Assembly (NCBI GenBank): GCA_031276035.1
Contig: JAISNV010000033.1
Coordinates: forward strand, 4,057-68,056
Origin: Bacteroidales bacterium
GTDB lineage: Bacteria > Bacteroidota > Bacteroidia > Bacteroidales > BM520
DNA: 64,000 bases
Direction of reading: 5' to 3'
Below, one piece after another: positions 6,721 through 60,394 of this stretch (the stretch's first letter is position 1; each line of letters opens with the position of its first letter). A program made the position numbers and the translations under genes. The notes under the pieces were generated by a model. It ran no database searches. It was not told the origin of the DNA and was given only the letters and a program-made list of their open reading frames with translations.

Positions 6721-6742
6721 GTTAGTAATTTCAATTTTGATT

Positions 6743-6785
6743 ATCCATAGAATTATTTTTATATAATTTTATGGATATTTTTTTG
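6743..6785 (+). terminator. Rho-independent terminator after the M16 gene
   Basis: The hairpin is ATCCATAGAATTAT / ATAATTTTATGGAT (14 bp, one G-T pair, 6-nt loop), followed by a T run. Confidence 0.6.
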
Positions 6786-6804
6786 TGCATTATAACATAT
6801 TTTA

Positions 6805-6812
6805 TATCTTTG
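6805..6812 (+). promoter_or_regulatory. -7 promoter box for typA
   Basis: TATCTTTG lies 28 nt upstream of the ATG at 6841. Confidence 0.5.
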
Positions 6813-6840
6813 CAAACCGAAATTTAAGAAATAAATTTTT

Positions 6841-8652: not shown

Positions 8653-8708
8653 ACCGGAATCTCTGTGATAAGCTATTGAAAAGTATAAAATAAAAAAGAA
8701 TTTAGGTC

Positions 8709-9527: not shown

Positions 9528-9532
9528 AACAA

Positions 9533-10684: not shown

Positions 10685-10702
10685 ACAATCAAATATCAAT
10701 TG

Positions 10703-10710
10703 CAAATATA
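10703..10710 (-). promoter_or_regulatory. -7 promoter box for the acyltransferase-PNP operon
   Basis: The reverse complement is TATATTTG, 19 nt upstream of the ATG at 10684. Confidence 0.45.
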
Positions 10711-10722
10711 GTTGAAATTTAC

Positions 10723-10730
10723 TAATTTTG
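10723..10730 (+). promoter_or_regulatory. -7 promoter box for gpsA
   Basis: TAATTTTG lies 33 nt upstream of the ATG at 10764. Confidence 0.45.
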
Positions 10731-10763
10731 CAATTTATATTTATCCCGTTTATAATCTAAATT

Positions 10764-11765: not shown

Positions 11766-11770
11766 TTATT

Positions 11771-12997: not shown

Positions 12998-13014
12998 GAG
13001 TATTCAGATTTTAA

Positions 13015-14502
13015 TTATTCGCTGTAATTTTCAAATTCTATCATATATTTTTGACCTAGTTTATCCTTTCCTATTAAATCACAGAATTCGCTTGCATCAT
13101 AATAAGCATTCGCCAAATTATCTTTTGCATCTTCATCATCAGGATTCTCATCATATAAATCTAATCTAAGCTGAATCATTTTATCTAAATACTTCAGAGC
13201 ATGTTTCTCTTGGTCAATATTTTGATAAAAATCTCTATAATTTTCATAAACATCATACAGATTATCATAATAATCCTGATCTTCTGTATCATCAATCAGT
13301 TTTTTGTATAAATCTTCACTTATTCCCAAAAACTTTTCTGTATTTTTTCTGTCTTCTTCGTACTTATAATATGTACCGATTAAATAATTACTATAAGCAT
13401 ATGCCGAATTTACCTCCTCTTCTTCATATTCGTCAAAAACATTTTTTGCTTTAGTTTGCATTTCTTTTAAAAGGACTTCATCTACAATGTTTTGAATTGT
13501 TATTTCTTTCGATGATAACATTTTATCTTCTACAAGCATTTCTTTTGCATTATCTAAATCAAAAACAATAAAGAAAATAATTGCATTAATAGAATCCATA
13601 TATTTTTCAATTGCGTCGATATCAGAATCATTTTCTTTAAAATATTTTTCACTCAACTCACAATGTTTTTGCAAATAAAAATATTTTTCGGAATAATTAT
13701 CTTTTTCATCGTAATATTCAATGATTTTTTCATACGCATCGAGAAGATCTTCAGGACCGGAATTCTCCAATTCTCTTTGAATTGCTTCCGAATAGTAATG
13801 AATCGATTTTAACAGATATTGTTCTCGGTTATCCTCCGAACAAACATCGCTTATTTTTAAATAAATATCAGCTAATTTTTCTATATCAATATCATTTGAT
13901 GTTTGGCACATTAAAAGATAAATCGAATAATGTTCTAAAGACTTGATTTTATTATCGTCATTAGAATATACTAATCCAAGATAATAATGTAAGAGAAATA
14001 ACATTATCATAGCATAATCATCTGAATTAAAAGGATATGAATTATATTTGATTTTTACAAATTTAATACCCGACTCAAATATTTTAATAGATTCTTTATA
14101 ATCGTCAAAATAATATCGTATTAATCCGTATTTAAGAAACCAATCATTCATATTATTATAATACAAAGAGTTATCAGCATTAATAAACACTGCTAATTCT
14201 TTCTCCAACTTTCGAAATAAAATTATAATCAGATCTTTAATATTATTTTCATCTTCATCCTCGTCATATAAATCGTATAAGGCATCCGAAACATTATTAA
14301 TAATATAATCGAAAACTTTGTTATTATCAGTATCAATAACAGCAAGTTTTATCATTTTATCAATCAAAGAATTGTCTTTGACTATTTCTTCGGCTAATAT
14401 TTCTGAAATCTCATCACTTTCATCTTCTTCTAAGGATAAAAAATAATTAATAGCTTCTAAATAATTATTATTGTTTAATAAAGAAATTAAATGCTCAGTC
14501 AT
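13015..14502 (-). CDS. Hypothetical acidic TPR-like protein (module member A')
   Basis: This 495-aa ORF aligns end to end with the 518-aa ORF at 15699-17255: MTEHLISLLNNNNYLEA vs MENKLLSLLINNDIQSA; LGLVYSNDDNKIKSL vs LGLAYKETNDKEKSL; DNLANAYYDASEFC vs EDLASAYIDAIDFC. Confidence 0.75.
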   Translation of the reverse strand: MTEHLISLLNNNNYLEAINYFLSLEEDESDEISEILAEEIVKDNSLIDKMIKLAVIDTDNNKVFDYIINNVSDALYDLYDEDEDENNIKDLIIILFRKLEKELAVFINADNSLYYNNMNDWFLKYGLIRYYFDDYKESIKIFESGIKFVKIKYNSYPFNSDDYAMIMLFLLHYYLGLVYSNDDNKIKSLEHYSIYLLMCQTSNDIDIEKLADIYLKISDVCSEDNREQYLLKSIHYYSEAIQRELENSGPEDLLDAYEKIIEYYDEKDNYSEKYFYLQKHCELSEKYFKENDSDIDAIEKYMDSINAIIFFIVFDLDNAKEMLVEDKMLSSKEITIQNIVDEVLLKEMQTKAKNVFDEYEEEEVNSAYAYSNYLIGTYYKYEEDRKNTEKFLGISEDLYKKLIDDTEDQDYYDNLYDVYENYRDFYQNIDQEKHALKYLDKMIQLRLDLYDENPDDEDAKDNLANAYYDASEFCDLIGKDKLGQKYMIEFENYSE

Positions 14503-14532
14503 AATTCGATTAAAGTTTTGTTGTGTTAGAAA

Positions 14533-15702
14533 TTAAAGTTTGCATTCAACAAAGAAAGCAATACTATTAAAGTAGTTAACCAATTTAATATAATAACAAT
14601 CGTTATCTTTGATTCTTCCGGCAGCGAAATCAATTTTTTCCTTTTTATACACCTCACTACCTTTAATATCTTCGGCATAAATCTTAGGAATTTCTATATA
14701 CAAATCTACAATTTTTTTTCGCGGATGCTTTTTTAAATCTAAAAATGCTAATGTATCATTTATACTTTTTTGAAATGATCTTAAAAATTCATAATCAAGT
14801 CCGAAAGCTTCATTCATAGCAAAAGCAATAATAGCATACAGCTCTCCGAATATTGTCAAGCAATCTTCTTGATAATCACGAACTCCGGGAGTTAATTGTC
14901 CTGAAAGTTTAAAACATTTTATACTTGTATTATAAAACTCATTACGATAAGCATCATTATGGGATAAGAAATAGGCATACATAATATTACTACGCAACTG
15001 AATCAGTAATGATAAAGGATTATTGTTTCTCGCAGTAATATCTATCCTTTCGAGTCCTTTTGTCATAATTAATTTGCCTCTTGCGAATAAATTTTCAGAA
15101 GGGTAGACTTTATATATCGTTGTCACTATTTCATCTATTTCTTTTGCAGTTTCTTTATCATCAACATCAAAAGAATATTCATAATATTTCCACTCCAATA
15201 AAGAATCTAAAAAATTATACGCGCTGGGATAATCTCTTAAACCATAATATGCTAAGTATTTGTTTTTCATAAGCAAGCATATATCATTTACATTTTGCTT
15301 ATTGTACTTTATATCGGTTCCGAAAATATAATTATTGTAAACATCCAAATATTTTAATGCATCATTATATTTATTTTCGACACAAAATAAAACACCTAAT
15401 TCTTTTGCACAATCGGCACGATTTTTCAACAATTCAGGCTCATCTTTATAAATTGTAAGATAATCATTACATAAGGCATAGGCTTTTTCATAATATTCCT
15501 TGTATATTTTATTATCTTCCGGATCTGCTTTCTGTGCCGTTTGTTGATACATATAAATTAAGTCCAGTGCCGACTTCAAATCATTATTTTTTGCGAGGAT
15601 ATCAACAGTTATACCTGCCAAACCATTAAAAAAATCCATATCGTAAGAAAAGATTTCCTTTTCAAAGTTTTTAATATTATCTGAATTTATGTCTTCGTTC
15701 AT
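14533..15702 (-). CDS. Hypothetical acidic helical-repeat protein (module member B)
   Basis: This is a 389-aa ORF. Its start overlaps the stop of the upstream gene by 4 nt (15699-15702), which suggests translational coupling. A TPR-like segment is AKELGVLFCVENKYNDALKYLDV. Confidence 0.75.
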   Translation of the reverse strand: MNEDINSDNIKNFEKEIFSYDMDFFNGLAGITVDILAKNNDLKSALDLIYMYQQTAQKADPEDNKIYKEYYEKAYALCNDYLTIYKDEPELLKNRADCAKELGVLFCVENKYNDALKYLDVYNNYIFGTDIKYNKQNVNDICLLMKNKYLAYYGLRDYPSAYNFLDSLLEWKYYEYSFDVDDKETAKEIDEIVTTIYKVYPSENLFARGKLIMTKGLERIDITARNNNPLSLLIQLRSNIMYAYFLSHNDAYRNEFYNTSIKCFKLSGQLTPGVRDYQEDCLTIFGELYAIIAFAMNEAFGLDYEFLRSFQKSINDTLAFLDLKKHPRKKIVDLYIEIPKIYAEDIKGSEVYKKEKIDFAAGRIKDNDCYYIKLVNYFNSIAFFVECKL

Positions 15703-17255
15703 TGCATATCATTTTTAAATTCTTCATATTCTTCACTGAGCATTTCCGTCATGGCCATAAGATTATATTTCTTGCAAAAATCTATTGCATCAATATATGC
15801 AGAGGCAAGGTCTTCAATCAAAAATTCGTCGGTATAATCTTCTTCCAACATAGATGTCTTAATTTCTATCATTTCAGTAACCGCTTCATAAATAGCCTCA
15901 AAATTATCATTCACATTACCGTTTTCGGCATAGATGTTTCTCTTGCATGCTAATAAGATATACAGTTTATCGAGATAGTCAACATCATTAGCTTCATCTT
16001 TTAAATATTCTCTAATTATATCCTCACATTGAGAAAGATAAATCAGTGCTTTTTGAAAATCTTTATGAGAATAATTATATTTTCCCAAGAGTAAGTTAGT
16101 ATCAATGAATCCTAATGAAATATCATTATCATCATATTTAACATATAGAGACTTTACATTATTATAATATTCCAACAAATAATCATAAATTTTGTTTTCG
16201 TCCAATGGAACTTTAATCTTTTCACTATACGTCTTACTTTCTTCATGGTACATTTCGATTCTTCTTTCCTCAAACAAATCCTGATTCAAAATTAAAAAGT
16301 TACAGAAATCGTAACCTGCAGACATATAATGAACCATTGTATAGATATTGGTAGAATCTATCTGAAGATCTTTAGTTGAAAAATCGAATTTTAATTTTAG
16401 AATAACATATTGGTGCGTATAGTCACTGTTCGAACCGTAATAACTTGCCAGCTCATCAAGAACTTCTTGAATATTATCAACAACAGGCTGAACGCCTTTA
16501 TTATTAGCGTTTTTATTATAAAAATTATAATAAGCTGTTAATGCGTTAAATAAATAATAATCTTTATTTTCTTCTGCACAAACAACGGCAATACTTTTAT
16601 ATACAAAAGCTAAATCCAAATCTAATTCATCATTATCGGAATAATTTTTACTGTTTTCCAAATTATGCAGATAGGGTAAAAAATTATAGAGAGATTTTTC
16701 TTTATCATTCGTTTCTTTATATGCTAAACCGAGATTGAAATATATAAGATATAATGACGATAAAAGCGTTTCATTGTCTTCAATATTCAAATATTTCACA
16801 CAAAGCTTCTTCGCGGTTTCCCATTGTTTTATTGCCTCGATATTATCATTGAAGATAAAACTATATCTGCCGAATTCTATATGCCAATTAACAATATCGT
16901 CTCTATAATAATTTTCATCGGATTTATATAATTTATACAGAGGTTCATCCAATCCTTTGTACAAATTTAGGATAGAAGTTTTTATAATATATGTTTCTTC
17001 GTCATCAATATAAGCATTAATTAATGCTGCGCAGAAGTCGAAAAGTACTTTGAGTATGACATTTATTTCATCAGCAGTATCAACTTCCGTCATCTTTATT
17101 ACATTATCAATAATATCGTCATTTTTTGTTTCGATAAGATATTGGGTAATATTTTGTAATTCATTAGTGAGGTCGTCATTACTTAAGCTCATAAATAATT
17201 CTGCTGCCGATTGAATATCATTATTAATCAACAGTGAAAGAAGTTTGTTTTCCAT
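15699..17255 (-). CDS. Hypothetical acidic TPR-like protein (module member A)
   Basis: This 518-aa ORF starts 12 nt after the thyA stop. It is a paralogue of 13015-14502. Confidence 0.75.
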   Translation of the reverse strand: MENKLLSLLINNDIQSAAELFMSLSNDDLTNELQNITQYLIETKNDDIIDNVIKMTEVDTADEINVILKVLFDFCAALINAYIDDEETYIIKTSILNLYKGLDEPLYKLYKSDENYYRDDIVNWHIEFGRYSFIFNDNIEAIKQWETAKKLCVKYLNIEDNETLLSSLYLIYFNLGLAYKETNDKEKSLYNFLPYLHNLENSKNYSDNDELDLDLAFVYKSIAVVCAEENKDYYLFNALTAYYNFYNKNANNKGVQPVVDNIQEVLDELASYYGSNSDYTHQYVILKLKFDFSTKDLQIDSTNIYTMVHYMSAGYDFCNFLILNQDLFEERRIEMYHEESKTYSEKIKVPLDENKIYDYLLEYYNNVKSLYVKYDDNDISLGFIDTNLLLGKYNYSHKDFQKALIYLSQCEDIIREYLKDEANDVDYLDKLYILLACKRNIYAENGNVNDNFEAIYEAVTEMIEIKTSMLEEDYTDEFLIEDLASAYIDAIDFCKKYNLMAMTEMLSEEYEEFKNDMQ

Positions 17256-22315: not shown

Positions 22316-22340
22316 TGTTAATATCTTTTTGTTCCTAAAT

Positions 22341-22386
22341 TAATCCCTTAAAGGAGAAAATAATCAATTTCTTCTTTAAGGGATTA
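22341..22386. terminator. Bidirectional hairpin between convergent genes
   Basis: TAATCCCTTAAAG (22341-22353) pairs with CTTTAAGGGATTA (22374-22386), giving a 13-bp stem and a 20-nt loop. Confidence 0.5.
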
Positions 22387-22401
22387 TAATTTATATGGAG
22401 T

Positions 22402-22806
22402 TTAATTTGCGAAATTAAAATTTAACTCTGAAGGAAAAAACGGTGGACTATAAGTTTGACTATTATACCCTCCTTGATTTGTTCTCACTTCCAATAAAAA
22501 CTCTTTATCTGCAGGTACTTGAACTGTAACTTCACCACAAAATGGACCTCCTACAAAGCCATACAAATTAACTGTGTAAACTTGATCTGCAACTGCAGAT
22601 ATCCATGGATCATCACCACTTGATAGTTCTGTCGGCCATTTAAAAGTAAGTGTTGCTTGACTTGACGACGAAGAACACACCGAAATTTTTATAGTGTGTG
22701 ACCTTACCACTGTTTTAGTTTCTTCTGTCCCACTCAATCCGGCAGCAAAAACAGAAGTTGAAATTAATAGCATTGTTAAAAATGCATACAAATTGTTTTT
22801 TTTCAT
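22402..22806 (-). CDS. Small secreted protein of unknown function (134 aa)
   Basis: The signal peptide is MKKNNLYAFLTMLLISTSVFAA. The mature part is about 110 aa, beta-rich by composition, and contains 2 Cys. Confidence 0.7.
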   Translation of the reverse strand: MKKNNLYAFLTMLLISTSVFAAGLSGTEETKTVVRSHTIKISVCSSSSSQATLTFKWPTELSSGDDPWISAVADQVYTVNLYGFVGGPFCGEVTVQVPADKEFLLEVRTNQGGYNSQTYSPPFFPSELNFNFAN

Positions 22807-22882
22807 AATCTAATTTTAAGTTAATAAATTTATTGTTTGTATTAAAAATATAATTAAATTTTTAATCTAATTATCCAACTGT

Positions 22883-23275
22883 TTATGGGATCCGACCATC
22901 TAATTGCCTGTTGGGCATACCATAATAACTAACTGTGTGTATCTCTTCCGAATATTCAACATAAATATTAGTTTGTACTGGCAACCACCATATTGGATTA
23001 ATTGTTTGTCGTTGATATATAGTTACACCATCCTTTATACCATCAACAGTAGTTATAATATAACTAGAAATATTTTCCGTTGCCCCTACCCATTCTACTT
23101 TTACTGACACCACAGAATTGGGCTCATGTGTAATATCCGGAAAATCTTCAACATAAGTATAAAAAGAAGACGAAGATGTAGGTAGTGTTATTTGCCCAAA
23201 TATTGTTATTGAGGTAAATAGCATAAATGAAAATATTCCCCAAACTTTAAATTTTTTCATAAATAATCGTTTCAT
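22883..23275 (-). CDS. Small secreted protein of unknown function (about 125-130 aa)
   Basis: The likely start is MKRLFMKKFKVWGIFSFMLFTSITIFGQ, at 23275 or 23260. The longer ORF-track start at 23299 would overlap the upstream gene. Confidence 0.65.
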   Translation of the reverse strand: MKRLFMKKFKVWGIFSFMLFTSITIFGQITLPTSSSSFYTYVEDFPDITHEPNSVVSVKVEWVGATENISSYIITTVDGIKDGVTIYQRQTINPIWWLPVQTNIYVEYSEEIHTVSYYGMPNRQLDGRIP

Positions 23276-23285
23276 AAAAAATACT

Positions 23286-23612
23286 TTACCTAAAATCAAA
23301 TGTTACATTTTGTACGGCACTGGTAAAACTCTGTTGAGCATATCTTCCTGAATCTGTCATTACAATAACTGTGACAATTACAGAATTAGCATCTACCCAA
23401 AAATAGTCGCTTCCTACATGTGCTCCGTAATTGAGATCACCATACTTAACTTCGATTTCTTTTATTTGAAGGAGTTCTTTACCTATAGGGTTAAGCGCAT
23501 ACTTTACATTAACAGTTGCTGTAGTTATCTCCGGACATATTATTGTTACATTTGTTGCAACGTAATTTTGTCCGTAAACTACACTTGAAATCATAAATAA
23601 TATTAGAAACAC
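23286..23612 (-). CDS. Small secreted protein of unknown function; start codon uncertain
   Basis: The ORF-track start is GTG at 23610-23612. The in-frame upstream codons ATT-ATA-AAA-AGA-TTT-AAG-ACT-TTA-TTA would supply a typical basic n-region (IIKRFKTLL), but there is no ATG before the in-frame stop at 23685-23687. Confidence 0.6.
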   Translation of the reverse strand: MFLILFMISSVVYGQNYVATNVTIICPEITTATVNVKYALNPIGKELLQIKEIEVKYGDLNYGAHVGSDYFWVDANSVIVTVIVMTDSGRYAQQSFTSAVQNVTFDFR

Positions 23613-23671
23613 TAATAAAGTCTTAAATCTTTTTATAATTTTATTTTTTAATGAATAATTAATTGTCGTAA

Positions 23672-23687
23672 CAAAATTACAAAACTA
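23672..23687 (-). promoter_or_regulatory. Two adjacent -7 box candidates for the small secreted protein genes
   Basis: The reverse complements are TAATTTTG (23672-23679) and TAGTTTTG (23680-23687). Confidence 0.35.
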
Positions 23688-24222
23688 TAAACGACTTTGG
23701 AGTGTTTTTTATAAAGCATAGTCTTAATTACAGGCAAATGTTTTTAAAAGGTAGGCTAACATTATCAAATACTTATGTGATATTTTTCATAAAACACAAA
23801 AATACTATCATTTCTTTTGTTAAAAATTAATCCTCAAACCTTAATGAATCTTAAAGAATAAAATTTAAATGAAATATTTAATACTAATTTATGAAACAAT
23901 AAAAACTTACCGCTTACATATAAAAATTTTATTAAAAATAATTGTTTATTATTTCCAAGTAACAATTAAGTTAGATCGGCAATTTTAGTAGAATAATATC
24001 ATCCCTATCTTTTTTCAATCATAAAGTTCATTTAAATACCTAAAAACCAAAATTGCACACTGAAAAAATTGTTTTTAAATGTTCATTTTGATTCTTAATC
24101 GTAGGTAATTGCTTAATTGTCGTTTGATTGGTGAGAGTATTTTCCGCAAATAAACGTTTCTAAAAGCCTCGACTTCAATGAATATTTTTCGATACCTAAT
24201 TTAACGTAGTTAATGTAAGGCA

Positions 24223-24334
<112 letters not shown>

Positions 24335-24360
24335 TTTCATTTTTCAGCGTTTTAATTTAA

Positions 24361-24394
24361 ACCGGGCAGGTTGCAAGAACCTGTCCGGTTTTTT
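24361..24394. terminator. Rho-independent terminator directly after the minus-strand three-gene cassette, structurally bidirectional
   Basis: ACCGGGCAGGT (24361-24371) pairs with ACCTGTCCGGT (24379-24389), an 11-bp stem with one G-T pair and a 7-nt loop. A T5 run follows on the plus strand and TTTAAATTAAAA on the minus strand. The cassette stop codon is at 24399-24401. Confidence 0.7.
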
Positions 24395-24398
24395 GGTA

Positions 24399-24722
24399 TT
24401 AAAATTTTTTCAGCCTGGTTTTTGTCTCCTCAATTGTTTCATCATCTTTTTTGAAAAGAATATCCACACATTTATCTTCAACTTTTTTATAGCCAGAGAC
24501 TACTCCATTTTCTATTTTTTTATAACCCGAAACGGCTCCGTTTTCAATCAGTTTATAGCCTGCAACGATTCCATTTTCTATGAGTTTGTTTGCTCTTATT
24601 ATACGTTTAGTCATTTCAATCTCCTTTTTATTATTGTTATTATTATTGGATTGTGCTCTGATTTCACCCATTACCGTCAATCCTGCGGCAATGGCTAATG
24701 CCAAAATTAATTTTACTTTCAT
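24399..24722 (-). CDS. Small secreted protein with an Asn-rich linker and three tandem 11-residue repeats (K-[KL]-I-E-N-G-x-V-[AS]-G-Y)
   Basis: The start was moved to the ATG at 24720-24722 (MKVKLILALAIAAGLTVMGEIRAQ signal peptide, AGAGG 8 nt upstream), because the ORF-track start at 24848 overlaps the upstream gene. The three 33-nt DNA repeat units span 24489-24587. Confidence 0.7.
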   Translation of the reverse strand: MKVKLILALAIAAGLTVMGEIRAQSNNNNNNKKEIEMTKRIIRANKLIENGIVAGYKLIENGAVSGYKKIENGVVSGYKKVEDKCVDILFKKDDETIEETKTRLKKF

Positions 24723-24735
24723 TTTGACCTCTTTT

Positions 24736-37040: not shown

Positions 37041-37049
37041 TAGTGTTAG

Positions 37050-37134
37050 TACCCGGGGTGGGACTTGAACCCACACGCCTGCAATAGGCAAGGGATTTTA
37101 AGTCCCTCGTGTCTACCAATTCCACCACCTGGGC
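37050..37134 (-). tRNA. tRNA-Leu (anticodon TAA), class II with a long variable arm
   Basis: The reverse complement reads GCCCAGGTGGTGGAATTGGTAGACACGAGGGACTTAAAATCCCTTGCCTATTGCAGGCGTGTGGGTTCAAGTCCCACCCCGGGTA. The anticodon loop is CTTAAAA. As I fold it, the acceptor stem has a G1-U72 pair and an A5/C68 mismatch. Confidence 0.85.
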
Positions 37135-37171: not shown

Positions 37172-37178
37172 CTTTTTG

Positions 37179-37251
37179 AGCGGAAGACGAGACTCGAACT
37201 CGCGACCCTAACCTTGGCAAGGTTATGCTCTACCAACTGAGCTACTTCCGC
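37179..37251 (-). tRNA. tRNA-Gly (anticodon GCC)
   Basis: The reverse complement reads GCGGAAGTAGCTCAGTTGGTAGAGCATAACCTTGCCAAGGTTAGGGTCGCGAGTTCGAGTCTCGTCTTCCGCT. The anticodon loop is TTGCCAA. Confidence 0.92.
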
Positions 37252-37282: not shown

Positions 37283-37290
37283 CAAAGATA
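37283..37290 (-). promoter_or_regulatory. -7 promoter box for the tRNA-Gly/tRNA-Leu unit
   Basis: The reverse complement is TATCTTTG, about 32 nt upstream of the tRNA-Gly 5' end. Confidence 0.4.
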
Positions 37291-37639
37291 CTACTTTTTT
37301 TGAAAAAATGATTTTTTTGAAATATTTTTTTTCTGAAATATTTTTATTTAATTACTTATAATAATTTGTTGTTGATTTTCATGTTTTTCTCTAATTGAAA
37401 AAACGAAAAAGTATTATGCAAGTGAAATTAGAATAAATTAAATCCATAATATTTTTGATATAATATCCTTTGGAAAACAAAAATTTTTAATAACACAATT
37501 ACTTTAGACTTAGAAAATTCAACTCAACTTAGAAAGTAATCCTTAAATAATTTATCGGTTCTTATGCAATATCTATTTTATTTCAAAATTAAGTTGATAA
37601 TTTATTAAATATTCTATTTTAATTTTTCTCAATTTTTAC

Positions 37640-37647
37640 TACATTTG
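37640..37647 (+). promoter_or_regulatory. -7 promoter box for gatE-gatD
   Basis: TACATTTG lies 37 nt upstream of the ATG at 37685. Confidence 0.45.
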
Positions 37648-37684: not shown

Positions 37685-39649
37685 ATGAAAAAAAACTTTG
37701 ATCCCCTAAAAAACTATGAAGCAACAAAAGAAAAAGTAGGTTATGTTCCTCGTAAAGAAGCAACTCAAGCCACATACGACAGAATCGGCTTCATGTCTGG
37801 ACTGGAAGTTCACCAGCAATTAAAAACAAAGAAAAAACTATTTTGTAATTGTCCGGCAGGTATTTATAACGATAATTCACATTTTGATGCCGAAGTTGTC
37901 CGCCACATGCGTCCTACATTAAGCGAACTCGGCGAATACGACGGAACAGCTCTAATGGAATTTAAAACTAAGAAAACCATCATATACAAGTTGAAAAACG
38001 AAACAACTTGTACTTACGAAGTTGACGACACTCCCCCATTTCCTATAAATCGTGAAGCTTTGGATATTGCTATCGAAATATCATTACTTTCTAAGTTGAA
38101 TATTGTTGGTGAAGTACATATTACTCGTAAACAATATCTTGACGGAAGTATCCCGACAGGATTTCAAAGAACTGCAATAATCGGTGTTGAAGGTGAAATT
38201 CCTATCAAAAATAAAATGATAAGATTAATTCAACTTAGTATTGAGGAAGATTCTTGTCGTGAGATTTCTGATATTGGTCATGTTCGCGAATACAAAACAG
38301 ACAGATTGGGAATGCCGTTGATTGAAACTGTTACTTATCCCGATATGGTAAATCCGGATGAAGTTAAAGAAGCTTGCGACTACATCAGGTTTTTAAACAG
38401 GTCAACCAACAAAGTTAGAACAGGAATAGGCGCCGGCCGTGAAGATGTTAATGTTAGTTGCAAAGGTGGAACAAGAGTTGAAATAAAAGGTGTTGCCCAT
38501 ACTAAATTAATTCCGGAACTTACTCATAATGAATGTTTCCGTCAATGGTCGCTATTACAAATAAGAGAAATTCTCAATAAAAGAATTAAAATTGGCGACT
38601 GGAAAATGTCTTCAAAAAAACTGAATTTCTTTGATTATGATTTTGTAAATCCGGCTATAATTGAAGCAAACAACAGAAAAAACAAATTTATCGCAGTAAA
38701 TCTTCCTGAATTTAAAGGTGTTTTATCACACTTCACTCAACCGGATAAATGTTTTGTAAATGAATTGTCCGACAGGTTGAAAGTTATTGCCTGCATTGAA
38801 AAACCGAATATCATAACTTCGGAAGACATTCACAATCCTGAAGATAAAAAGATTTTTACTCAAATATCCGAATTATTAAATTCCGGAGAAAACGATGCAC
38901 AGGTTATTTTCTGGGCGCCTGAAGAAGACATAGCCACTGCTCTGGATGTTATCGACGAAAGATGTAAAATGGCTTTTAAAGGAGTTCCGAATGAAACTCG
39001 GAAATATTTATTAGACGGAACAACAATCTTCGAAAGAGTTCTTCCCGGTGCCGACAGAATGTATCCGGATACCGACTCCGCTCCTATTCCATTGGATAAC
39101 CAACATTTGGAGAAACTACAAGCAAATTTACCAAACGACATATATGAGCGTACAGGTCAATTGGTTAAATGGAATGCTCCTGAAGATACATTCACTTTCA
39201 TACATGTTAAAAATTTATTTCCGGTTATTGAAAAAATTACAAATAAATTGAATTTCGATCCGAAATTTATTTCGTGTTTTATGGGGCATCGTTTAAAATT
39301 TATTGAAGGACATTATTCTACAAAGGATTTTGATTACAACAGAATTTTCGATATGTTCGAATACATCAATAAAAACAAGCTTGAAAAGGAAATAGCATAT
39401 AAGATATTACCCGTTTTATATCAGCATCCGCAAATGGACTTCGATTCGATACTTACAACTATCAATTTCAAAAAATTGAAATCAGAAAATATTGTATCGA
39501 ATATTTCTATGTTGAAAAAGAAATATGATGAAATCGGAAGAATTAAAACGAATGATGCCAAAAATAATTGGATTATGGGTCAATTAAATAATTTAGCCGT
39601 AGGTAATATTTCAATGAATGAATTAAATAATATTGTAAATGGAAATTAA
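37685..39649 (+). CDS. gatE: Archaeal-type Glu-tRNA(Gln) amidotransferase subunit E (GatE-like)
   Basis: GLEVHQQLKTKKKLFCNCP, VRHMRPTLSELGEYD, CTYEVDDTPPFPIN, RKQYLDGSIPTGFQRTAIIG, DRLGMPLIETVTYPDM and REDVNVSCKGGTRVEIKGV match the GatE layout, including the AspRS-like insertion. The C-terminus carries a YqeY-like tail. Confidence 0.85.
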   Translation: MKKNFDPLKNYEATKEKVGYVPRKEATQATYDRIGFMSGLEVHQQLKTKKKLFCNCPAGIYNDNSHFDAEVVRHMRPTLSELGEYDGTALMEFKTKKTIIYKLKNETTCTYEVDDTPPFPINREALDIAIEISLLSKLNIVGEVHITRKQYLDGSIPTGFQRTAIIGVEGEIPIKNKMIRLIQLSIEEDSCREISDIGHVREYKTDRLGMPLIETVTYPDMVNPDEVKEACDYIRFLNRSTNKVRTGIGAGREDVNVSCKGGTRVEIKGVAHTKLIPELTHNECFRQWSLLQIREILNKRIKIGDWKMSSKKLNFFDYDFVNPAIIEANNRKNKFIAVNLPEFKGVLSHFTQPDKCFVNELSDRLKVIACIEKPNIITSEDIHNPEDKKIFTQISELLNSGENDAQVIFWAPEEDIATALDVIDERCKMAFKGVPNETRKYLLDGTTIFERVLPGADRMYPDTDSAPIPLDNQHLEKLQANLPNDIYERTGQLVKWNAPEDTFTFIHVKNLFPVIEKITNKLNFDPKFISCFMGHRLKFIEGHYSTKDFDYNRIFDMFEYINKNKLEKEIAYKILPVLYQHPQMDFDSILTTINFKKLKSENIVSNISMLKKKYDEIGRIKTNDAKNNWIMGQLNNLAVGNISMNELNNIVNGN

Positions 39650-41036
39650 TATGGATAACGAATTTTTTCAAGGGTATAAAGGACAAGCATTAGAAATTTT
39701 AAAAAAATATAATACACGAGTATGGGGGCAGGCTGAAATTGCAACCACAAGAGGAAATTTTAAAGGTACGGTTTTACCGAGAGCGAGCAATTACGATGAT
39801 AAACATATTGTGATTAAAATTAGTACCGGCTACAATATTGGGATTGATGTAGATACTATTACCGACATGAAGGAAACAGGTTATAATAAAGCCAATTATA
39901 AGATTCCTGAAAAAGAATTTCCTGTAACTCCCGGTTTACCAAATGTTAAATTAATCGGTACCGGCGGAACTATTGCTTCACGTCTTGATTATCGTACGGG
40001 AGCTGTAATTCCTGCATTCTCCCCCGGTGAATTATACGGTGCGGTTCCCGAATTAGCCGAAATTTGTAATCTTGAAACCGAAAAAGTTTTCGCTGTTTTC
40101 AGTGAAAACATGGGACCTACACAATATATTGCACTTGCAAAAGCAATAGGCAAAGAAATTGAACGCGGAGTTGACGGAATTGTCATTGGTCACGGCACAG
40201 ATACAATGCATCATACCGGCGCAGCGCTTACCTTTATGGTACAAAATCCACCGGTTCCTATAGTACTTGTAGGCTCGCAACGTTCCAGCGACAGACCAAG
40301 CTCCGATGCGGCTCTGAATTTGATGCACGCTATGACTGCTGCCGGACACGGCAATATTGCGGAAGTTATGGTTTGTATGTTCGGACCTACTTCCGATGAA
40401 TACGGCTTACTTCATAAAGGCACAAGAGTAAGAAAAATGCATTCTTCTTACCGTTCTACTTTCAGAACTATCGGCGATACTCCTCTTGCAACCGTTACCA
40501 GAAAAGGCGTTACTCCAATAAAAAAAGATTATAAGCCACGTAAAAAAGATAAAGATGTAACAATTCTGCCGTATTTCTCAGATAAAGTAACTATGCTTTA
40601 TTATTACACCGGCATGAAACCAGATACCATTGATTTACTTGTAGATGCAGGTTACAAAGGAATTGTTTTTGTCGGAACGGGATTGGGGCATGTTAATAAA
40701 GAACTTTATCCTGCAATTGAGCGCGCACAAGCTAAAGGCGTTCATATGTATATGACTTTGCAAACTATTTGGGGATACGTTCAAATGTTTGTTTATGATA
40801 CCGGTAGAGATATGATGGCTAAAGGAATCATCCCTTGCGGAAATATGCTTCCTGAAGTTGCATATATCAAACTCGGTTGGGCGCTAGGACAAACTGATGA
40901 TCCCGAAGAAGTAAAAAGATTGATGCTCACTCCTATCAACGACGAAATCACTGAAAGAGAGCCCTATAACGGATATATTGTGCTTCAAGGCGGTGTTCCG
41001 GAAGTTGACGAGTTTTTAGCTCAAACACATAAATAG
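39639..41036 (+). CDS. gatD: Archaeal-type Glu-tRNA(Gln) amidotransferase subunit D (GatD-like, asparaginase-domain glutaminase)
   Basis: IGTGGTIASRLDYRTGAV (Thr nucleophile), GHGTDTMHHTGAAL, GSQRSSDRPSSDAALNL, VRKMHSS, GTGLGH and MLPEVAYIKLGWALGQTDD are present. The first ATG overlaps the gatE stop by 11 nt, and an alternative ATG lies at 39651. Confidence 0.88.
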   Translation: MEINMDNEFFQGYKGQALEILKKYNTRVWGQAEIATTRGNFKGTVLPRASNYDDKHIVIKISTGYNIGIDVDTITDMKETGYNKANYKIPEKEFPVTPGLPNVKLIGTGGTIASRLDYRTGAVIPAFSPGELYGAVPELAEICNLETEKVFAVFSENMGPTQYIALAKAIGKEIERGVDGIVIGHGTDTMHHTGAALTFMVQNPPVPIVLVGSQRSSDRPSSDAALNLMHAMTAAGHGNIAEVMVCMFGPTSDEYGLLHKGTRVRKMHSSYRSTFRTIGDTPLATVTRKGVTPIKKDYKPRKKDKDVTILPYFSDKVTMLYYYTGMKPDTIDLLVDAGYKGIVFVGTGLGHVNKELYPAIERAQAKGVHMYMTLQTIWGYVQMFVYDTGRDMMAKGIIPCGNMLPEVAYIKLGWALGQTDDPEEVKRLMLTPINDEITEREPYNGYIVLQGGVPEVDEFLAQTHK

Positions 41037-41059: not shown

Positions 41060-41812
41060 ATGCTTATTTCTGCTGTTATCATCACAAAGAACGAAGAAAG
41101 AAACATTGAAAGATGTATAAAATCTTTATTGAAGGTTGCTGATGAAATAGTTATTGTTGATTCGTTTTCTGATGACAAAACAAAAGAAATTTGCTTAAAA
41201 TACGATGTAAAGTTTGAATGCAACTGCTGGATTGGTTATGCCGAACAAAAGAATTATGCTAATTTATTGGCTTCAAATGATATGATTTTATCTATTGATG
41301 CCGATGAAGAACTTTCTGAAGAACTGCAGAAATCAATTCTTCAAATTAAATCTTCGGAAAACTATAATTATGTTTTCAAATTCAAAAGATTAAACAATTA
41401 TTGTGGAAAATGGATAAAACACGGCGCTTGGTATCCGGATATGAAAGTTAGAATTTTTAACAGGAAAACAACTTTTTGGGAAGACACCAAAGTTCATGAA
41501 ATATTAAATTATGGTGATACAAAAGTTGTTTTCCTAAAAGGAGATTTACTTCATTATCCTTTTTTATCCATCGAAGAACATATTAAAAGTACAAACAATT
41601 ATTCCACACTACATGCACAATATGCATTTGAACGAAACAAAAAGAAAACATATTTTTCTTATTTGTTGAGTGCCATTTGGAAATTCTTCTCTGATTATCT
41701 TTTCAAATGCGGATTCTTAGACGGATTTTACGGTTTTACAATATATAAAATTACTGTTTTGGACAGATATTTAAGATATGCAAAACTAAAAAGATTAAGA
41801 ATAAGAAAATAG
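41060..41812 (+). CDS. Glycosyltransferase family 2 protein
   Basis: ISAVIITKNEERNIERCIKSL, VDSFSDDKT and SIDADE (DxD) are present. Confidence 0.82.
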   Translation: MLISAVIITKNEERNIERCIKSLLKVADEIVIVDSFSDDKTKEICLKYDVKFECNCWIGYAEQKNYANLLASNDMILSIDADEELSEELQKSILQIKSSENYNYVFKFKRLNNYCGKWIKHGAWYPDMKVRIFNRKTTFWEDTKVHEILNYGDTKVVFLKGDLLHYPFLSIEEHIKSTNNYSTLHAQYAFERNKKKTYFSYLLSAIWKFFSDYLFKCGFLDGFYGFTIYKITVLDRYLRYAKLKRLRIRK

Positions 41813-56038: not shown

Positions 56039-56956
56039 ATGATTGAAACTATCAACATTTCAAAAAGATATAAAAAAGTTCAAGCTTTAAAAGGCATTAC
56101 TTTCGAAGTTAACGAAGGAGAAATTTTCGGGATAATCGGTCCCGATGGTGCGGGTAAAACCACTCTGTTTCGTATTCTCACGACTTTGCTTCTCGCTGAT
56201 GAAGGTACTGCAATCGTCGATGGCTTGGATGTTGTAAAAGATTACGAGGAAATTCGCTTACGTGTTGGATATATGCCGGGTAGATTTTCTTTATATCAGG
56301 ATTTGACGGTAGAAGAGAATTTGAATTTTTACGCAAGGATTTTCAATACAACTATTCAAGAAAATTACGAATTGGTTAAAGACATTTATCAACATCTCGA
56401 ACCTTTTAAAGGAAGGCGTGCCGGCGCTTTATCAGGCGGTATGAAACAAAAACTTGCATTATGCTGTGCCCTGATTCATCGTCCGACAATTTTGTTTTTA
56501 GACGAGCCTACAACCGGAATAGATCCTGTTTCAAGAAAAGAATTATGGCAAATGCTACGAAGATTGAAAGATCAAAGAATTACAATTATCGTATCAACAC
56601 CTTACATGGACGAAGCGAGTTTATGTGATAGAATCGCACTAATTCAACAAGGAGTTTTTCTGAAAATAAATACGCCCGCAAATATTGTAAAAGATTTCGA
56701 AGGCACGCTTTGGAGTGTCTCCGCCGATAATATGTCAAAACTATTACAAGACCTGCGACAACACAATGGAATAATAACCGTGTATGCTTTCGGCGATACC
56801 CATCACATTACCGTTGATAGTAAGAAAATCACAATTGACGGAATAAAAGCAGATTTAGAAAGTTTAGGATATAACGAAATAGAGGTGAAAGAGATTGAAG
56901 CCGGAATTGAAGATTGCTTTATGGCACTTGTTCCGAGAGAGACAAATGAAAATTAA
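56039..56956 (+). CDS. ABC transporter ATP-binding protein (ABC-2/YbhF-like, first copy)
   Basis: Walker A is GPDGAGKTT, the signature is LSGGMKQK, and Walker B is ILFLDEPTTGID. Confidence 0.92.
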   Translation: MIETINISKRYKKVQALKGITFEVNEGEIFGIIGPDGAGKTTLFRILTTLLLADEGTAIVDGLDVVKDYEEIRLRVGYMPGRFSLYQDLTVEENLNFYARIFNTTIQENYELVKDIYQHLEPFKGRRAGALSGGMKQKLALCCALIHRPTILFLDEPTTGIDPVSRKELWQMLRRLKDQRITIIVSTPYMDEASLCDRIALIQQGVFLKINTPANIVKDFEGTLWSVSADNMSKLLQDLRQHNGIITVYAFGDTHHITVDSKKITIDGIKADLESLGYNEIEVKEIEAGIEDCFMALVPRETNEN

Positions 56957-57067
56957 TCGTTAATAACGAATGAAATATGTTAGTTTAAAACTATTTAATA
57001 TTAAGACTGTTAATCAACTCAGTAAAGACTTCAAAAGATTAATCAAATATGTATTTTAATTATTAAA

Positions 57068-57835
57068 ATGAAAGTTTCAAAAAACAATTATCAATTGTCA
57101 ATCCATGCAAGCGAATTGACAAAGATCTTCGGTAGTTTTACTGCTGTTGATAAAATTTCTTTTGAGGTTGAAAAAGGCGAGATTTTCGGTTTTCTGGGAG
57201 CAAACGGCGCCGGAAAAACTACTGCTATGCGCATGCTTTGCGGACTTAGTAAACCGACATCGGGAGAAGCTTCTGTAGCCGGATTTAATATTAGAACACA
57301 ATCCGAAGATATTAAGAAAAATATAGGATATATGAGCCAAAAATTTGCATTGTATGAAAACTTAAAAGTATGGGAGAATATTCGTCTTTATGCCGGAATA
57401 TACGGATTGAAAGGAAAAGAAATCAGTAAAAGTACTGATGAAATGTTGGCTCGGTTAGGTTTTGAAAGCGAAAAAAACACACTCGTAAAAGAACTTCCGC
57501 TCGGATGGAAACAGAAGCTGGCTTTCTCTGTATCAATCATACATAGTCCGCAAATTGTTTTTCTGGATGAACCCACCGGCGGCGTTGATCCTGTAACACG
57601 CCGGCAATTCTGGGAATTGATATACCAGGCTGCCGACAAAGGAATTACTGTTTTTGTAACCACTCATTATATGGACGAAGCGGAATATTGCAAAAGAATA
57701 TCTATTATGGTTGACGGTCGTATCGAAGCTCTTGACACACCGAAAAGATTAAAACAAAACTTTAATGCAAACAGCATGGACGAGGTTTTTCAAGAACTGG
57801 CAAGAAAATCTAAATATATTGACAGTTTAAGTTAA
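57068..57835 (+). CDS. ABC transporter ATP-binding protein (ABC-2/YbhF-like, second copy)
   Basis: Walker A is GANGAGKTT, the signature-like block is LPLGWKQK, and Walker B is IVFLDEPTGGVD. Confidence 0.92.
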   Translation: MKVSKNNYQLSIHASELTKIFGSFTAVDKISFEVEKGEIFGFLGANGAGKTTAMRMLCGLSKPTSGEASVAGFNIRTQSEDIKKNIGYMSQKFALYENLKVWENIRLYAGIYGLKGKEISKSTDEMLARLGFESEKNTLVKELPLGWKQKLAFSVSIIHSPQIVFLDEPTGGVDPVTRRQFWELIYQAADKGITVFVTTHYMDEAEYCKRISIMVDGRIEALDTPKRLKQNFNANSMDEVFQELARKSKYIDSLS

Positions 57836-57993
57836 TAACAGTAATAATGTAAATTGCAAAATTTGAAATAAACTAACATGTAAATTTTGAAGATTATGTA
57901 ATTATGTAATTCCGTATATATGAATATTTCTATCGAAAAATATAATTCTCTGATGTTGAAATTACATAAAACCGGAGTGATACCAAAGACCAA

Positions 57994-59124
57994 TTGAAAT
58001 TTATGAAAAACAGAAAAATAGCGGCGTTTGGAACCTTTGTACGAAAAGAATTTCTGCATATTTTCAGAGATATGTGGACTACGCTTATTTTGTTGTTACT
58101 ACCAATTTTGATGACAATTCTTATCGGTTTCGGAATTTCAACTGAGATAAAAAATGCGTCGGTAGCAATAATGGATACTTCGCAGGATGTAGCAACTCAA
58201 GGCATAATCAACAAATTATCCACCAGCGAATATTTCAATATTACTCATTATGTTAATACGGAAGAAGAAATCGAAGATTTATTTAAGAGAAATAAAATAG
58301 GAATGGCTGTTATTTTCAGTGAAAGATTCTACGAAAATATGCTTCATACGGGAGAAGCGCAGGTTTTAATTCTTGCAGACGCAACCGACCCTAATACCGC
58401 CAGCACCCTAAGCACATACGCATCTATGTTAATCGCATCATATCAAACAGATATAAATAAAAACCTGGGAAATATGCCGTATCAAATTACTCCGGAAATA
58501 CAATTGCTCTACAATCCGAGTATGAAAGGTTCCTACAGTACAACTCCGGGCGTATTGGGATTAGTATTAATTCTAATTTGTGCCATGATGACATCCGTTT
58601 CTATTGTAAAGGAAAAACAGGTAGGAACAATGGAAATACTATTGGTTTCGCCACTAAAACCAATGACCATTATTGTTGCAAAAACAATCCCCTACTTCAC
58701 AATTTCATTCATCAATTTAGCAACAATTCTATTGCTGTCGTACTTTGCATTAGGAGTACCTATTGTCGGCAACTTTGCTTTATTAATCGGCGTTTGTGTA
58801 TTATATATTATTGTGTCATTAGCTTTCGGATTGCTGATTTCTACCGTTGTTTCCTCACAATTAGTCGCCATGCTTATCTCAGGTTTAGTTTTGATGATGC
58901 CCGTTATGATGCTTTCCGGATTGATTTTTCCCGTTGATAATATGCCTTTGGTTTTACAATGGGTTTCGCATATTGTCCCCGCAAAATGGTTTATCATGGC
59001 AGTAAAAAGTGTAATGATTAAAGGCGCCGGATTCAAAGCAATTTACGTTGAGTTTTCAATCTTGCTTGGAATGGCGATTTTATTACTGACGATCAGTATT
59101 AAAAAATTTAAGAATCGATTATAA
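57994..59124 (+). CDS. ABC-2 type transporter permease (YbhS/YbhR-like)
   Basis: One N-terminal TM segment and a large loop are followed by 5 C-terminal TM segments. The EKEKQVGTMEILLVSP-like motif is present as VKEKQVGTMEILLVSP. Confidence 0.88.
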   Translation: MKFMKNRKIAAFGTFVRKEFLHIFRDMWTTLILLLLPILMTILIGFGISTEIKNASVAIMDTSQDVATQGIINKLSTSEYFNITHYVNTEEEIEDLFKRNKIGMAVIFSERFYENMLHTGEAQVLILADATDPNTASTLSTYASMLIASYQTDINKNLGNMPYQITPEIQLLYNPSMKGSYSTTPGVLGLVLILICAMMTSVSIVKEKQVGTMEILLVSPLKPMTIIVAKTIPYFTISFINLATILLLSYFALGVPIVGNFALLIGVCVLYIIVSLAFGLLISTVVSSQLVAMLISGLVLMMPVMMLSGLIFPVDNMPLVLQWVSHIVPAKWFIMAVKSVMIKGAGFKAIYVEFSILLGMAILLLTISIKKFKNRL

Positions 59125-59281
59125 ACAAATAGTAAAATATTATAAATCCTAATTTTGATAATTAAAAATAAAAAATAAAATCATATTATATTTCCGGTTA
59201 TAAAAACAGATAAAAATCTATGAAATTTATTAATAAATATTATATCAAAACCACCTAATAGCACGAATTTAATTATTATCT

Positions 59282-60394
59282 ATGTTAAAATATCTTTTAG
59301 AAAAGGAATTTAAGCTGTTTTTTCGAAACAAATTCTTGCCGAATCTTGTGATTTTCCTACCATTTATTGCATTGGCGGTTTTTCCATTAGTGGCAAACTT
59401 AGATATTAGAAATCTTTCGGTTGCGGTTGTTGATCATGATAAAAGTCCGTACTCAAGACAATTAACAGATAAAATTTTATCATCAACATATTTCAAATTC
59501 TCCGGAAGTTTTGACAACTATAATAATGCTTTGGAAAGTGTTGAAAACGACAAGGCCGATTTAATTCTCGAAATTCCATTAAATTTTGAAAAAAATCTTG
59601 TCAAAGACGGGAATACACAAGTTTTCATTGCAATAAACGCCGTTGACGGAGTAAAAGGTGGAATGGGAAGTTCATATCTTACAGGCATAATATCCGATTT
59701 CAATCAAAACATTCAAACAGAATGGATTCAACCATCATCACGATTATCAATACCGCAAATAGATATCCGTCCTGTATATCTTTATAATCCGACATTACAA
59801 TACATCTATTTTATGATTCCGGCGATTATTGTCATGATTATGGCTATGTTATGCGGTTTTCTCCCCGCTCTTAATATCGTTGAAGAAAAGGAAAACGGCA
59901 CAATTGAGCAAATAAACGTTACTCCTGTAAGAAAATCTACATTCATATTATCAAAATTAATCCCATATTGGATAATCGGATTTGTTGTAATAAATATATG
60001 CATCGGTGTATCATGGCTTTTCTACGGATTTCTACCTAAAGGTTCAATTCTTACAATTTACTTGTTTTCAATAATATTTATCTTTACATTCTGCGGAATG
60101 GGTCTGGTTGTATCTAATTATGCCAATACAATTCAGCAGGCAATGTTTATCATGTTTTTCTTTATCACAACATTTATTTTCTTGAGTGGACTTTTCACTC
60201 CGTTTACAAACATGCCGCAATGGACACAAACACTCGGAGTAATCAGTCCGCTGAAATATATAATCGAAGTAACACGAATGGTTTATCTCAAAGGTGCAGT
60301 ATTTATGGAGATGATTCCACAATTTGTCTCGCTTTTAGTATTAGCTATTCTCTTTAACGGCTGGGCAATATTGAGTTATAAAAAGAGAGCATAA
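59282..60394 (+). CDS. ABC-2 type transporter permease (YbhS/YbhR-like)
   Basis: The topology matches the preceding permease, and the VEEKENGTIEQINVTP motif is present. Confidence 0.88.
   Translation: MLKYLLEKEFKLFFRNKFLPNLVIFLPFIALAVFPLVANLDIRNLSVAVVDHDKSPYSRQLTDKILSSTYFKFSGSFDNYNNALESVENDKADLILEIPLNFEKNLVKDGNTQVFIAINAVDGVKGGMGSSYLTGIISDFNQNIQTEWIQPSSRLSIPQIDIRPVYLYNPTLQYIYFMIPAIIVMIMAMLCGFLPALNIVEEKENGTIEQINVTPVRKSTFILSKLIPYWIIGFVVINICIGVSWLFYGFLPKGSILTIYLFSIIFIFTFCGMGLVVSNYANTIQQAMFIMFFFITTFIFLSGLFTPFTNMPQWTQTLGVISPLKYIIEVTRMVYLKGAVFMEMIPQFVSLLVLAILFNGWAILSYKKRA

Follow-up and report, generated by a model that had tools for sequence, protein, structure and literature searches.

How does a gene pair for GatDE, an amidotransferase of archaeal type, come to lie in a Bacteroidota genome, and does it still act on tRNA there? 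The question is raised by a 64,000-nt stretch of contig JAISNV010000033.1 from a Bacteroidales bacterium (the window hereafter, meaning this whole stretch), in which a gatE gene (37685..39649, plus strand, 654 aa) is followed directly by a gatD gene (39651..41036, plus strand, 461 aa from the conserved start or 465 aa if the ATG at 39639 is used). GatDE is described in the literature as restricted to Archaea (PMC2330236, PMC2811023, PMC9499178). From the analysis of sequences and models reported here we consider it fairly probable that the pair encodes a functional, native GatDE-type tRNA-dependent amidotransferase, in an old bacterial clade that most likely derives from one archaeal transfer.

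We first consider the identity of the two proteins, which a preliminary description of this locus had assigned from their motifs alone. This assignment is borne out for both. For GatE, the NCBI curated models give 464.6 bits for NF003107 (cut-off 456, residues 28-650) and 403.3 bits for TIGR00134 (cut-off 319.55), while the best GatB model reaches only 124.5 bits, far under its cut-off of 338. Pfam finds GatB_N in GatE, and the protein aligns end to end with the GatE chains of the solved archaeal enzymes (2D6F_C, E = 7.5e-83; 1ZQ1_C, E = 2.1e-82). An AlphaFold2 model built on a 48-sequence alignment has a mean predicted local distance difference test score (pLDDT) of 90.3 and a predicted template modeling (TM) score of 0.86, and the top Foldseek matches of this model are the GatE of 1ZQ1 (TM 0.84) and that of 2D6F (TM 0.80-0.81), with GatB chains at about 0.7. 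The protein reads as a cradle domain with an insertion domain, a helical domain and a YqeY-like tail. For GatD the scores are well clear of both equivalog cut-offs (NF003217, 495.5 bits against 310; TIGR02153, 495 bits against 324), with end-to-end alignment to 2D6F_A (E = 2.9e-114) and 1ZQ1_A (E = 3.3e-113). Specifically, Pfam places GatD_N (PF18195, residues 35-74) ahead of Asparaginase and Asparaginase_C. The asparaginase core covers residues ~100-440, where TIGR00519 scores 372 bits, and it shares its fold, Thr nucleophile and Thr-Asp-Lys triad with the type I L-asparaginases (5OT0, 4Q0M, 1WLS). GatD differs from these enzymes in that it adds GatD_N and pairs with GatE.

The catalytic residues are also retained. 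Every motif quoted in the preliminary description was located at the expected place, namely GLEVHQQL (residues 39-46), LFCNCPAG (52-59), IEEDSCRE (186-193) and DRLGMPLIE (206-214) in GatE, and GTGGTIAS (107-114), HGTDTM (185-190), SQRSSDRPSSDA (213-224) and MLPEVAYIKLGWALGQTDD (403-421) in GatD. When GatE is mapped on 2D6F_C, residues E41, H43, E187 and E214 align with E13, H15, E157 and E184 of Methanothermobacter thermautotrophicus GatE, and all four are invariant in 48 bacterial and Asgard sequences. The first two lie in the active-site motif GLEVHQQL (37799..37822, plus strand) and the last two in the segment IEEDSCRE...DRLGMPLIE (38240..38326, plus strand). Note that His15, Glu157 and Glu184 of the M. 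thermautotrophicus enzyme are the Mg2+ ligands of the kinase site (PMC2330236). In GatD, residues T111, T187, D188 and K266 align with M. thermautotrophicus T101, T177, D178 and K254; the essential residues of both subunits used for this mapping are those listed in PMC2330236. The preliminary description had held that the assignment would fail if catalytic residues were missing on proper alignment; in the alignment to the solved archaeal enzymes every mapped residue of GatE and GatD is in place. Compared with the archaeal GatDE of M. thermautotrophicus (2D6F, with tRNA(Gln)) and Pyrococcus abyssi (1ZQ1), there are the same two subunits with the same domain order, and the fold of GatE matches at TM 0.80-0.84 in the model. 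Identity to the M. thermautotrophicus subunits is 45.5% for GatD and 34.4% for GatE, with identical catalytic residues.

By homology with these enzymes, two GatE subunits would bind a GatD dimer. GatE would bind Glu-tRNA(Gln) and phosphorylate the gamma-carboxyl group of its glutamate with ATP and Mg2+ via H43, E187 and E214, and GatD would hydrolyse glutamine or asparagine by means of the nucleophile T111 and the T187-D188-K266 triad. The ammonia released would then pass through an internal tunnel to GatE, where the activated intermediate would become Gln-tRNA(Gln). One contrast with the bacterial GatCAB system lies in the partner subunit. GatB (Staphylococcus aureus 3IP4, 2G5I) is a paralogue of GatE with the same cradle fold (TM ~0.7) and the same kinase/transamidase chemistry, whereas the partner encoded here is an asparaginase-type GatD and not an amidase-type GatA with GatC.

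The two open reading frames (ORFs) had been placed at 37685..39649 (654 aa) and 39639..41036 (465 aa) on the plus strand, and these coordinates are exact. The 11-nt overlap that follows from them holds for the longest ORF only and is probably an artefact of choosing it; at the start conserved in orthologues there is no such overlap. Orthologous GatD proteins from an Odoribacter sp. and another, more distant Bacteroidales metagenome-assembled genome (MAG), labelled L001 and L002 below, begin with MDNEFFQGY or MANDLFQGY, which corresponds to the second ATG in the window at 39651. With the gatE stop codon TAA at 39647-39649 this leaves a 1-nt spacer. Across the clade the junctions are overlaps of -1, -4 and -8 nt or gaps of +1 nt, and of +17 nt in one locus (L003). 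Since the junctions are short throughout the clade, translational coupling appears to be general, and in the window gatE and gatD would be transcribed from a Bacteroidota-type promoter and have their translation coupled over the 1-nt spacer.

We next asked how widely such pairs occur. When GatE was used as query, the best 120 clusters (90% identity) were all 65-84% identical to it; the search saturates, and more than 120 Bacteroidota clusters reach 65% identity or above. Most of these clusters carry no source name, and the named ones are all Bacteroidales, Marinilabiliales, Odoribacter or Bacteroidota, labelled as GatE by NCBI or JGI. A scan of GTDB, which used one genome per species and patterns from this single GatE sequence and therefore undercounts, found carriers among cultured Clostridium species, Eubacteriales, Calditrichota, Neomarinimicrobiota, Spirochaetota and Desulfatiglandaceae. 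Overall, bacterial GatD or GatE orthologues or adjacent pairs are found in at least eight phyla, including Desulfobacterota, Planctomycetota, Gemmatimonadota and the Clostridia, and every one of the sequences with a source name is labelled GatD or GatE by NCBI or JGI. Carriers include Clostridium rhizosphaerae (NZ_JAESWC01), C. culturomicium (NZ_CCXK01), Clostridiales oral taxon 876 F0540, Odoribacter sp. (JAJDHA01) and Phycisphaerales MAGs with contigs of 5.25 and 5.67 Mb. As to gene order, gatE stands directly before gatD in all 16 complete loci of the GTDB scan, as well as in L018 and in the Asgard contig L020 discussed below, and the two are fused in L019. Of the loci examined, L021 alone has the two genes apart, and this adjacency, with occasional fusion, is a further difference from the GatDE of M. 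thermautotrophicus and P. abyssi, as is the bacterial host. L018 represents a deeper lineage (P0121), whose neighbouring genes and a tmRNA gene next to gatE mark it as bacterial, and the named relatives of this lineage are Phycisphaerae/Planctomycetota and Gemmatimonas.

The preliminary description had held that the locus would lose its value if these proteins belonged to a widespread and already annotated bacterial clade. They do belong to one, and a special finding is thus not supported. Within a large clade of bacterial GatDE that databases already annotate, this locus is one ordinary member, inherited vertically. With a Bacteroidota host and orthologues in at least eight bacterial phyla, the pair does not conform to the archaea-only description. 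That description is a statement about distribution and not a molecular criterion, and membership in the enzyme family is unaffected by it. We found no report of bacterial GatDE in the open-access literature, a search that did not cover subscription journals, and the bacterial clade itself appears unstudied. Given that the genes are already named by automated annotation pipelines, what is lacking is recognition and experimental work rather than discovery at this locus.

Several of the more distant loci have features of their own. In L018 the tmRNA gene (7554-7903, tag ANTQFAMAA) lies directly upstream of gatE on the opposite strand. L019, a bacterial-looking high-GC contig, carries at 9301-12132 a natural GatE-GatD fusion of 943 aa; its GatE part (~residues 1-480) keeps the catalytic motifs and apparently lacks the helical/tail domain, and its GatD part is 55% identical to the GatD of the window. 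In L021 (3671-5623 and 8001-10657) a divergent GatE-like protein without GLE(V/I)HQQ reads AAVVIRQPL instead, its gene is separated from gatD by squalene-cyclase-like and radical SAM genes, and gatD is directly upstream of asnA (asparagine synthetase A). Finally, a Spirochaete locus (L015, 7938-9017) contains a free-standing type I asparaginase paralogue of 359 aa without GatD_N, two genes upstream of gatE-gatD.

The origin of this clade was explored with neighbour-joining trees built on representatives of 50%-identity clusters. Among the GatD relatives recovered by exhaustive search, identity to the window protein falls from 57% to ~45%. In the GatD tree the named bacterial GatDs all fall into one compact clade whose sisters are deeper bacterial lineages; next out is a small group with a sequence from Sigynarchaeota (Asgard), followed by a large archaeal radiation. 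With three archaeal type I asparaginases as outgroup, GatD forms a single clade separate from the asparaginases in 60 of 60 replicates, and archaeal GatD to the exclusion of the bacteria is monophyletic in none of the 60. Inter-domain transfer, one of the explanations offered in the preliminary description, is favoured, as this outgroup-rooted tree nests bacterial GatD inside archaeal GatD. Asgard GatDE (Candidatus Sigynarchaeota L020 and Promethearchaeota relatives) has the same gene order and nearly the same sizes, and Asgard GatD is the closest named archaeal GatD at ~48% identity. Specifically, contig L020 has adjacent gatE (648 aa) and gatD (464 aa) in that order, and its GatE falls firmly among Asgard sequences. 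The E-then-D order is thus not a bacterial peculiarity, and since an Asgard contig has the same order, the module probably came from the donor and was not a bacterial invention.

Within bacteria, the compact clade does not follow the bacterial phylogeny, with Calditrichales placed among Clostridium and Eubacteriales beside Bacteroidota, and GatD is ~70-74% identical between bacterial phyla. As a whole, these sequence comparisons lead us to favour one old transfer from archaea to bacteria followed by spread between bacterial phyla.

Since this transfer, the clade would have gained a GatE N-terminal extension of its own and its own versions of two elements that read tRNA. The extension (residues 1-38; 37685..37798, plus strand) carries the clade motif N-Y-x-x-T-x-x-[KR]-[VI]-G-Y-x-P-[RL]-K. 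It had been described as about 35 residues long; the extension is real, but its length varies with the protein it is compared with, from ~15 to 28 residues (~25 when measured on the NCBIfam profile). The window protein has 38 residues before the GLE motif, where M. thermautotrophicus has 10, P. abyssi ~17 and an Asgard GatE 23, which makes this structured segment ~21-28 residues longer than in the solved archaeal enzymes. Its motif is kept throughout the compact bacterial clade; the extension is shorter in Asgard GatE and missing from the GatE of the Spirochaete L015 and of M. thermautotrophicus. In the AlphaFold2 model it is predicted to form ordered helices at residues 7-18 and 28-34 (pLDDT ~96).

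The two tRNA-reading elements are altered as well. Archaeal GatDE recognises tRNA(Gln) by its A1-U72 pair and its D-loop (PMC2330236, PMC9499178). GatE carries a short basic loop in the position of the 3-10 turn with which bacterial GatB reads U1-A72, and it also has a tail motif of its own (PMC2811023). In the window the loop is NKVRTGIGAGRED (38408..38446, plus strand), of GatE-type length and lacking the 3-10 turn insertion of GatB. At this position the compact bacterial clade has GKVRTGIGA[GA]R[EQ]D, as opposed to KV[RK][RK]GLG[VT][TI]RQD in archaea, so that RTGIGAG in the window corresponds to archaeal [RK][RK]GLG[VT][TI]. The tail-domain motif, on the D-loop side of the tRNA, is WIMGQLNNLAVGNIS (39569..39613, plus strand), the bacterial-clade form, and it lacks the KxGKxK motif of the GatB tail. 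The tail was compared with Asgard forms, the bacterial W-x-M-G-x-L-x-x-x-A-x-G-N-I being set against a Lys-rich MGxVMKxxRGKIDGK. M631, G632 and G640 are invariant in the 48-sequence alignment. The extension, the loop and the tail are three changes specific to the clade, located in GatE regions that contact tRNA or close to them, and they would be consistent with adaptation to a bacterial tRNA.

A number of observations speak against a functional GatDE of archaeal descent and have to be set beside those above. Support for the Asgard link is moderate, the group of bacterial and Asgard GatD being recovered in 39 of the 60 asparaginase-rooted replicates. GatE is no nearer to Asgard sequences (31-34% identity) than to those of Euryarchaeota (32%); a specific donor lineage was also sought from GatE and rejected, as identity is ~32% to Asgard and Euryarchaeota alike. 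The margin of GatE over the stricter equivalog cut-off is narrow (464.6 versus 456 bits). The AspRS-like insertion domain and YqeY-like tail named in the preliminary description agree, along with the cradle and helical domains, with the colinear profile match and with the model, but a Pfam search of the GatE sequence gives no match to the GAD insertion domain and only a sub-threshold one to the tail domain GatB_Yqey (22.9 against 27), whereas Asgard GatE, at ~32% identity and with its Lys-rich tail and shorter N-terminal extension, has a detectable GAD domain. Finally, the archaeal enzyme reads A1-U72 while bacterial tRNA(Gln) normally has U1-A72 (PMC2330236, PMC2811023), and because the loop and the tail differ from the archaeal forms, substrate specificity is not simply transferable by homology.

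There is also a bolder form of the preferred reading. Under it, a GatDE lineage obtained from archaea long ago would have been adjusted to the tRNA(Gln) of bacteria and would serve many of them (at least eight phyla) as the chief or sole source of Gln-tRNA(Gln), replacing GatCAB and/or glutaminyl-tRNA synthetase (GlnRS); the new N-terminal extension, the altered loop and the altered tail would adapt GatE to U1-A72 instead of A1-U72. We regard this as a tentative proposal that is rather less likely than not to hold. If true, it would overturn the view that GatDE is exclusive to archaea, and nature would have supplied an experiment on how GatDE and archaeal tRNA(Gln) co-evolved, as has been proposed. 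Reviews treat GatDE as an archaeal signature enzyme and use its supposed archaeal restriction and this co-evolution to explain why archaea never acquired GlnRS; such an archaea-only distribution is contradicted by a GatDE clade that is conserved, under selection and found across many bacterial phyla. Cultured carriers (several Clostridium isolates) allow the handling of bacterial tRNA(Gln) by GatDE and the replacement of GatCAB or GlnRS to be tested.

Another explanation, also raised in outline by the preliminary description, is that the enzyme has been retargeted. It would then act on another misacylated tRNA (e.g. Asp-tRNA(Asn)) or in a non-translational tRNA-dependent amidation, while GlnRS and/or GatCAB would be present in the same cell. 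The GatE N-terminus and the two tRNA-reading elements are indeed clade-specific. Genes for GlnRS occur in cultured Bacteroidia and in many Clostridia, which may make a second route to Gln-tRNA dispensable there. In addition, gatD adjoins asnA in L021 and a free asparaginase paralogue lies near the pair in L015. However, these two contexts are single cases from divergent lineages, the first-base-pair loop retains the length and basic character of GatE, and archaeal GatDE is strictly a glutamyl-tRNA amidotransferase (PMC2811023). There is also no conserved neighbour that hints at another pathway: across phyla nothing is conserved beside the pair but the pair itself, and the flanks in 10 loci are unrelated to translation. 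On balance we judge retargeting unlikely. As for the tRNA served and the other routes to Gln-tRNA(Gln), no tRNA-Gln gene travels with gatE-gatD in 24 loci, and no T-box that could reveal the sensed tRNA was found upstream of gatE in six Firmicutes loci, where the sole match was an unrelated lysine riboswitch in L017. A search for glnS, gatCAB and gltX on the 64-kb window and on the contig extensions that could be reached found none of them.

A still less probable alternative is that the pair survives by vertical descent from a GatDE of life's last universal common ancestor (LUCA), lost from most bacteria, with no transfer from archaea at all. The presence of GatDE in LUCA has been proposed by Sheppard and Soll, as cited in PMC9499178. 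Congruent with this, bacterial GatE is monophyletic in 100 of 100 neighbour-joining bootstraps and only ~32% identical to archaeal GatE, Asgard and euryarchaeal alike, and divergence within bacteria is deep, GatE identity falling to 39%. Against it stand the nesting of bacterial GatD within archaeal GatD in 60 of 60 replicates with asparaginase outgroups, the patchy distribution, the departure of the within-clade tree from bacterial phylogeny, and the interphylum identity of GatD noted above. We consider this explanation improbable, and an old archaeal transfer remains the origin that we favour.

The last two explanations concern the integrity of the locus and are settled by its genomic context. 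The window is part of a Bacteroidota chromosome, with genes for a type IX secretion system (T9SS) sorting-domain protein, a SusC-like protein, a PorW-like tetratricopeptide repeat protein, TypA, MnmE, ThyA, XerD and GyrB. GC content is flat over the gatE-gatD locus, GC at third codon positions (GC3) is 0.281 in gatE and 0.295 in gatD against a window mean of 0.278, and among 43 window ORFs gatE and gatD rank 4th and 9th in typicality of codon usage. The comparison of codon usage and GC3, suggested earlier with gyrB and typA and made here with the window ORFs, shows both genes to be native to the window, and a reading of recent horizontal transfer from composition, also tried, was rejected by these values. 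The order BCAT, c6, xerD, tRNA-Gly/Leu, gatE, gatD, GT2 is common to the window, L001 and L002, and an independent Logan assembly has the same gatE-gatD-GT2 junctions. The ratio of nonsynonymous to synonymous divergence (dN/dS) against L001 is 0.08 for GatE and 0.044 for GatD, compared with 0.056 for BCAT and 0.033 for GyrB, values that are approximate since dS is near saturation. GatD is 90% identical to its L002 counterpart, which makes it the most conserved syntenic gene in that comparison. Judged from these substitution patterns, gatE and gatD are under strong purifying selection.

A decaying, non-functional remnant of an old transfer is accordingly very improbable: nothing supports it at this locus, the degenerate GatE motif that might be cited belongs to the distant L021, and with both frames intact, the catalytic residues all kept and dN/dS at 0.04-0.08 it is refuted here. 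An assembly artefact, whether archaeal contamination or a chimeric contig, has nothing but the unusual taxonomic pairing to recommend it and is of negligible probability, being refuted by the gene order shared with Odoribacter sp. and the other Bacteroidales MAG, by the independent Logan assembly, by GC, GC3 and codon usage typical of the window and by the conserved Bacteroidota promoter box, as the preliminary description had already supposed. Native context, synteny, independently assembled junctions and dN/dS thus exclude contamination, a chimeric contig and decay of the genes, and a native and conserved GatDE remains.

The promoter box just mentioned, which had been recognised as of Bacteroidetes type, is TACATTTG at 37640..37647 (plus strand), a match to the Bacteroidota-type -7 element TAnnTTTG situated 45 nt 5' of the gatE ATG. 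It is kept in both relatives, as TACATTTG at -45 in L001 and as TATATTTG at -46 in L002. Within the window, TAnnTTTG occurs no more than 100 nt upstream of 16 of the 43 ORFs, where ~4 would be expected from background density. This supports TACATTTG as the native Bacteroidota promoter of gatE, on the strength of sequence conservation and enrichment. A sigma-70 scan stayed at background (24 found, 21.4 expected). The boxes lie mostly 22-45 nt from the start codon and are enriched about four-fold, the pattern expected of Bacteroidota sigma-A promoters with short leaders. Downstream, there is no plus-strand terminator-like site from the end of gatD until 42062, past the GT2 gene, and the sole such site between the start of gatE and the end of gatD (38985-39003) falls within coding sequence of gatE.

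The flanking genes are as had been described, with tRNA genes upstream of the pair and a GT2-type gene (41060-41812) downstream of gatD. The tRNA genes are those for tRNA-Leu(taa) (37049-37134) and tRNA-Gly(gcc) (37178-37251), both on the minus strand. The same two tRNAs lie upstream of gatE in L001 and L002; they are syntenic neighbours of gatE and have no functional link to the pair. The AT-rich spacer between them and gatE is 433 nt long in the window, against 177 nt in L002, and no regulatory RNA is recognisable in it, the one match being a sub-threshold chance hit. At 37290-37350 this spacer contains an imperfect direct repeat (ttttttgaaa(a/t)at..ttttt, three copies) that matches no Rfam family. 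In L001, an insertion of two minus-strand ORFs, each ~630 aa, separates the tRNA-Gly/Leu pair from gatE (~5600-10000); they are missing in the window and in L002, and L001 retains its promoter box at -45.

Elsewhere in the window, three further regions were noted. Four consecutive minus-strand ORFs at 11771-17255 (408, 495, 389 and 518 aa) have no NCBIfam match and form the lowest-GC stretch (0.265-0.276 versus ~0.33), possibly a genomic island or a locus for surface structures or polysaccharide. At 22316-24735, between the gene for a T9SS-tailed protein and the next gene, ~2.4 kb with a GC content of 0.279 contain no ORF of 150 aa or more. Finally, two ABC ATPase and two ABC-2 permease genes at 56039-60394 match separate parts of the model for RbbA, a ribosome-associated ATPase/transporter; with an adjoining HlyD-type adaptor gene, they look like a split form of this single-polypeptide protein.

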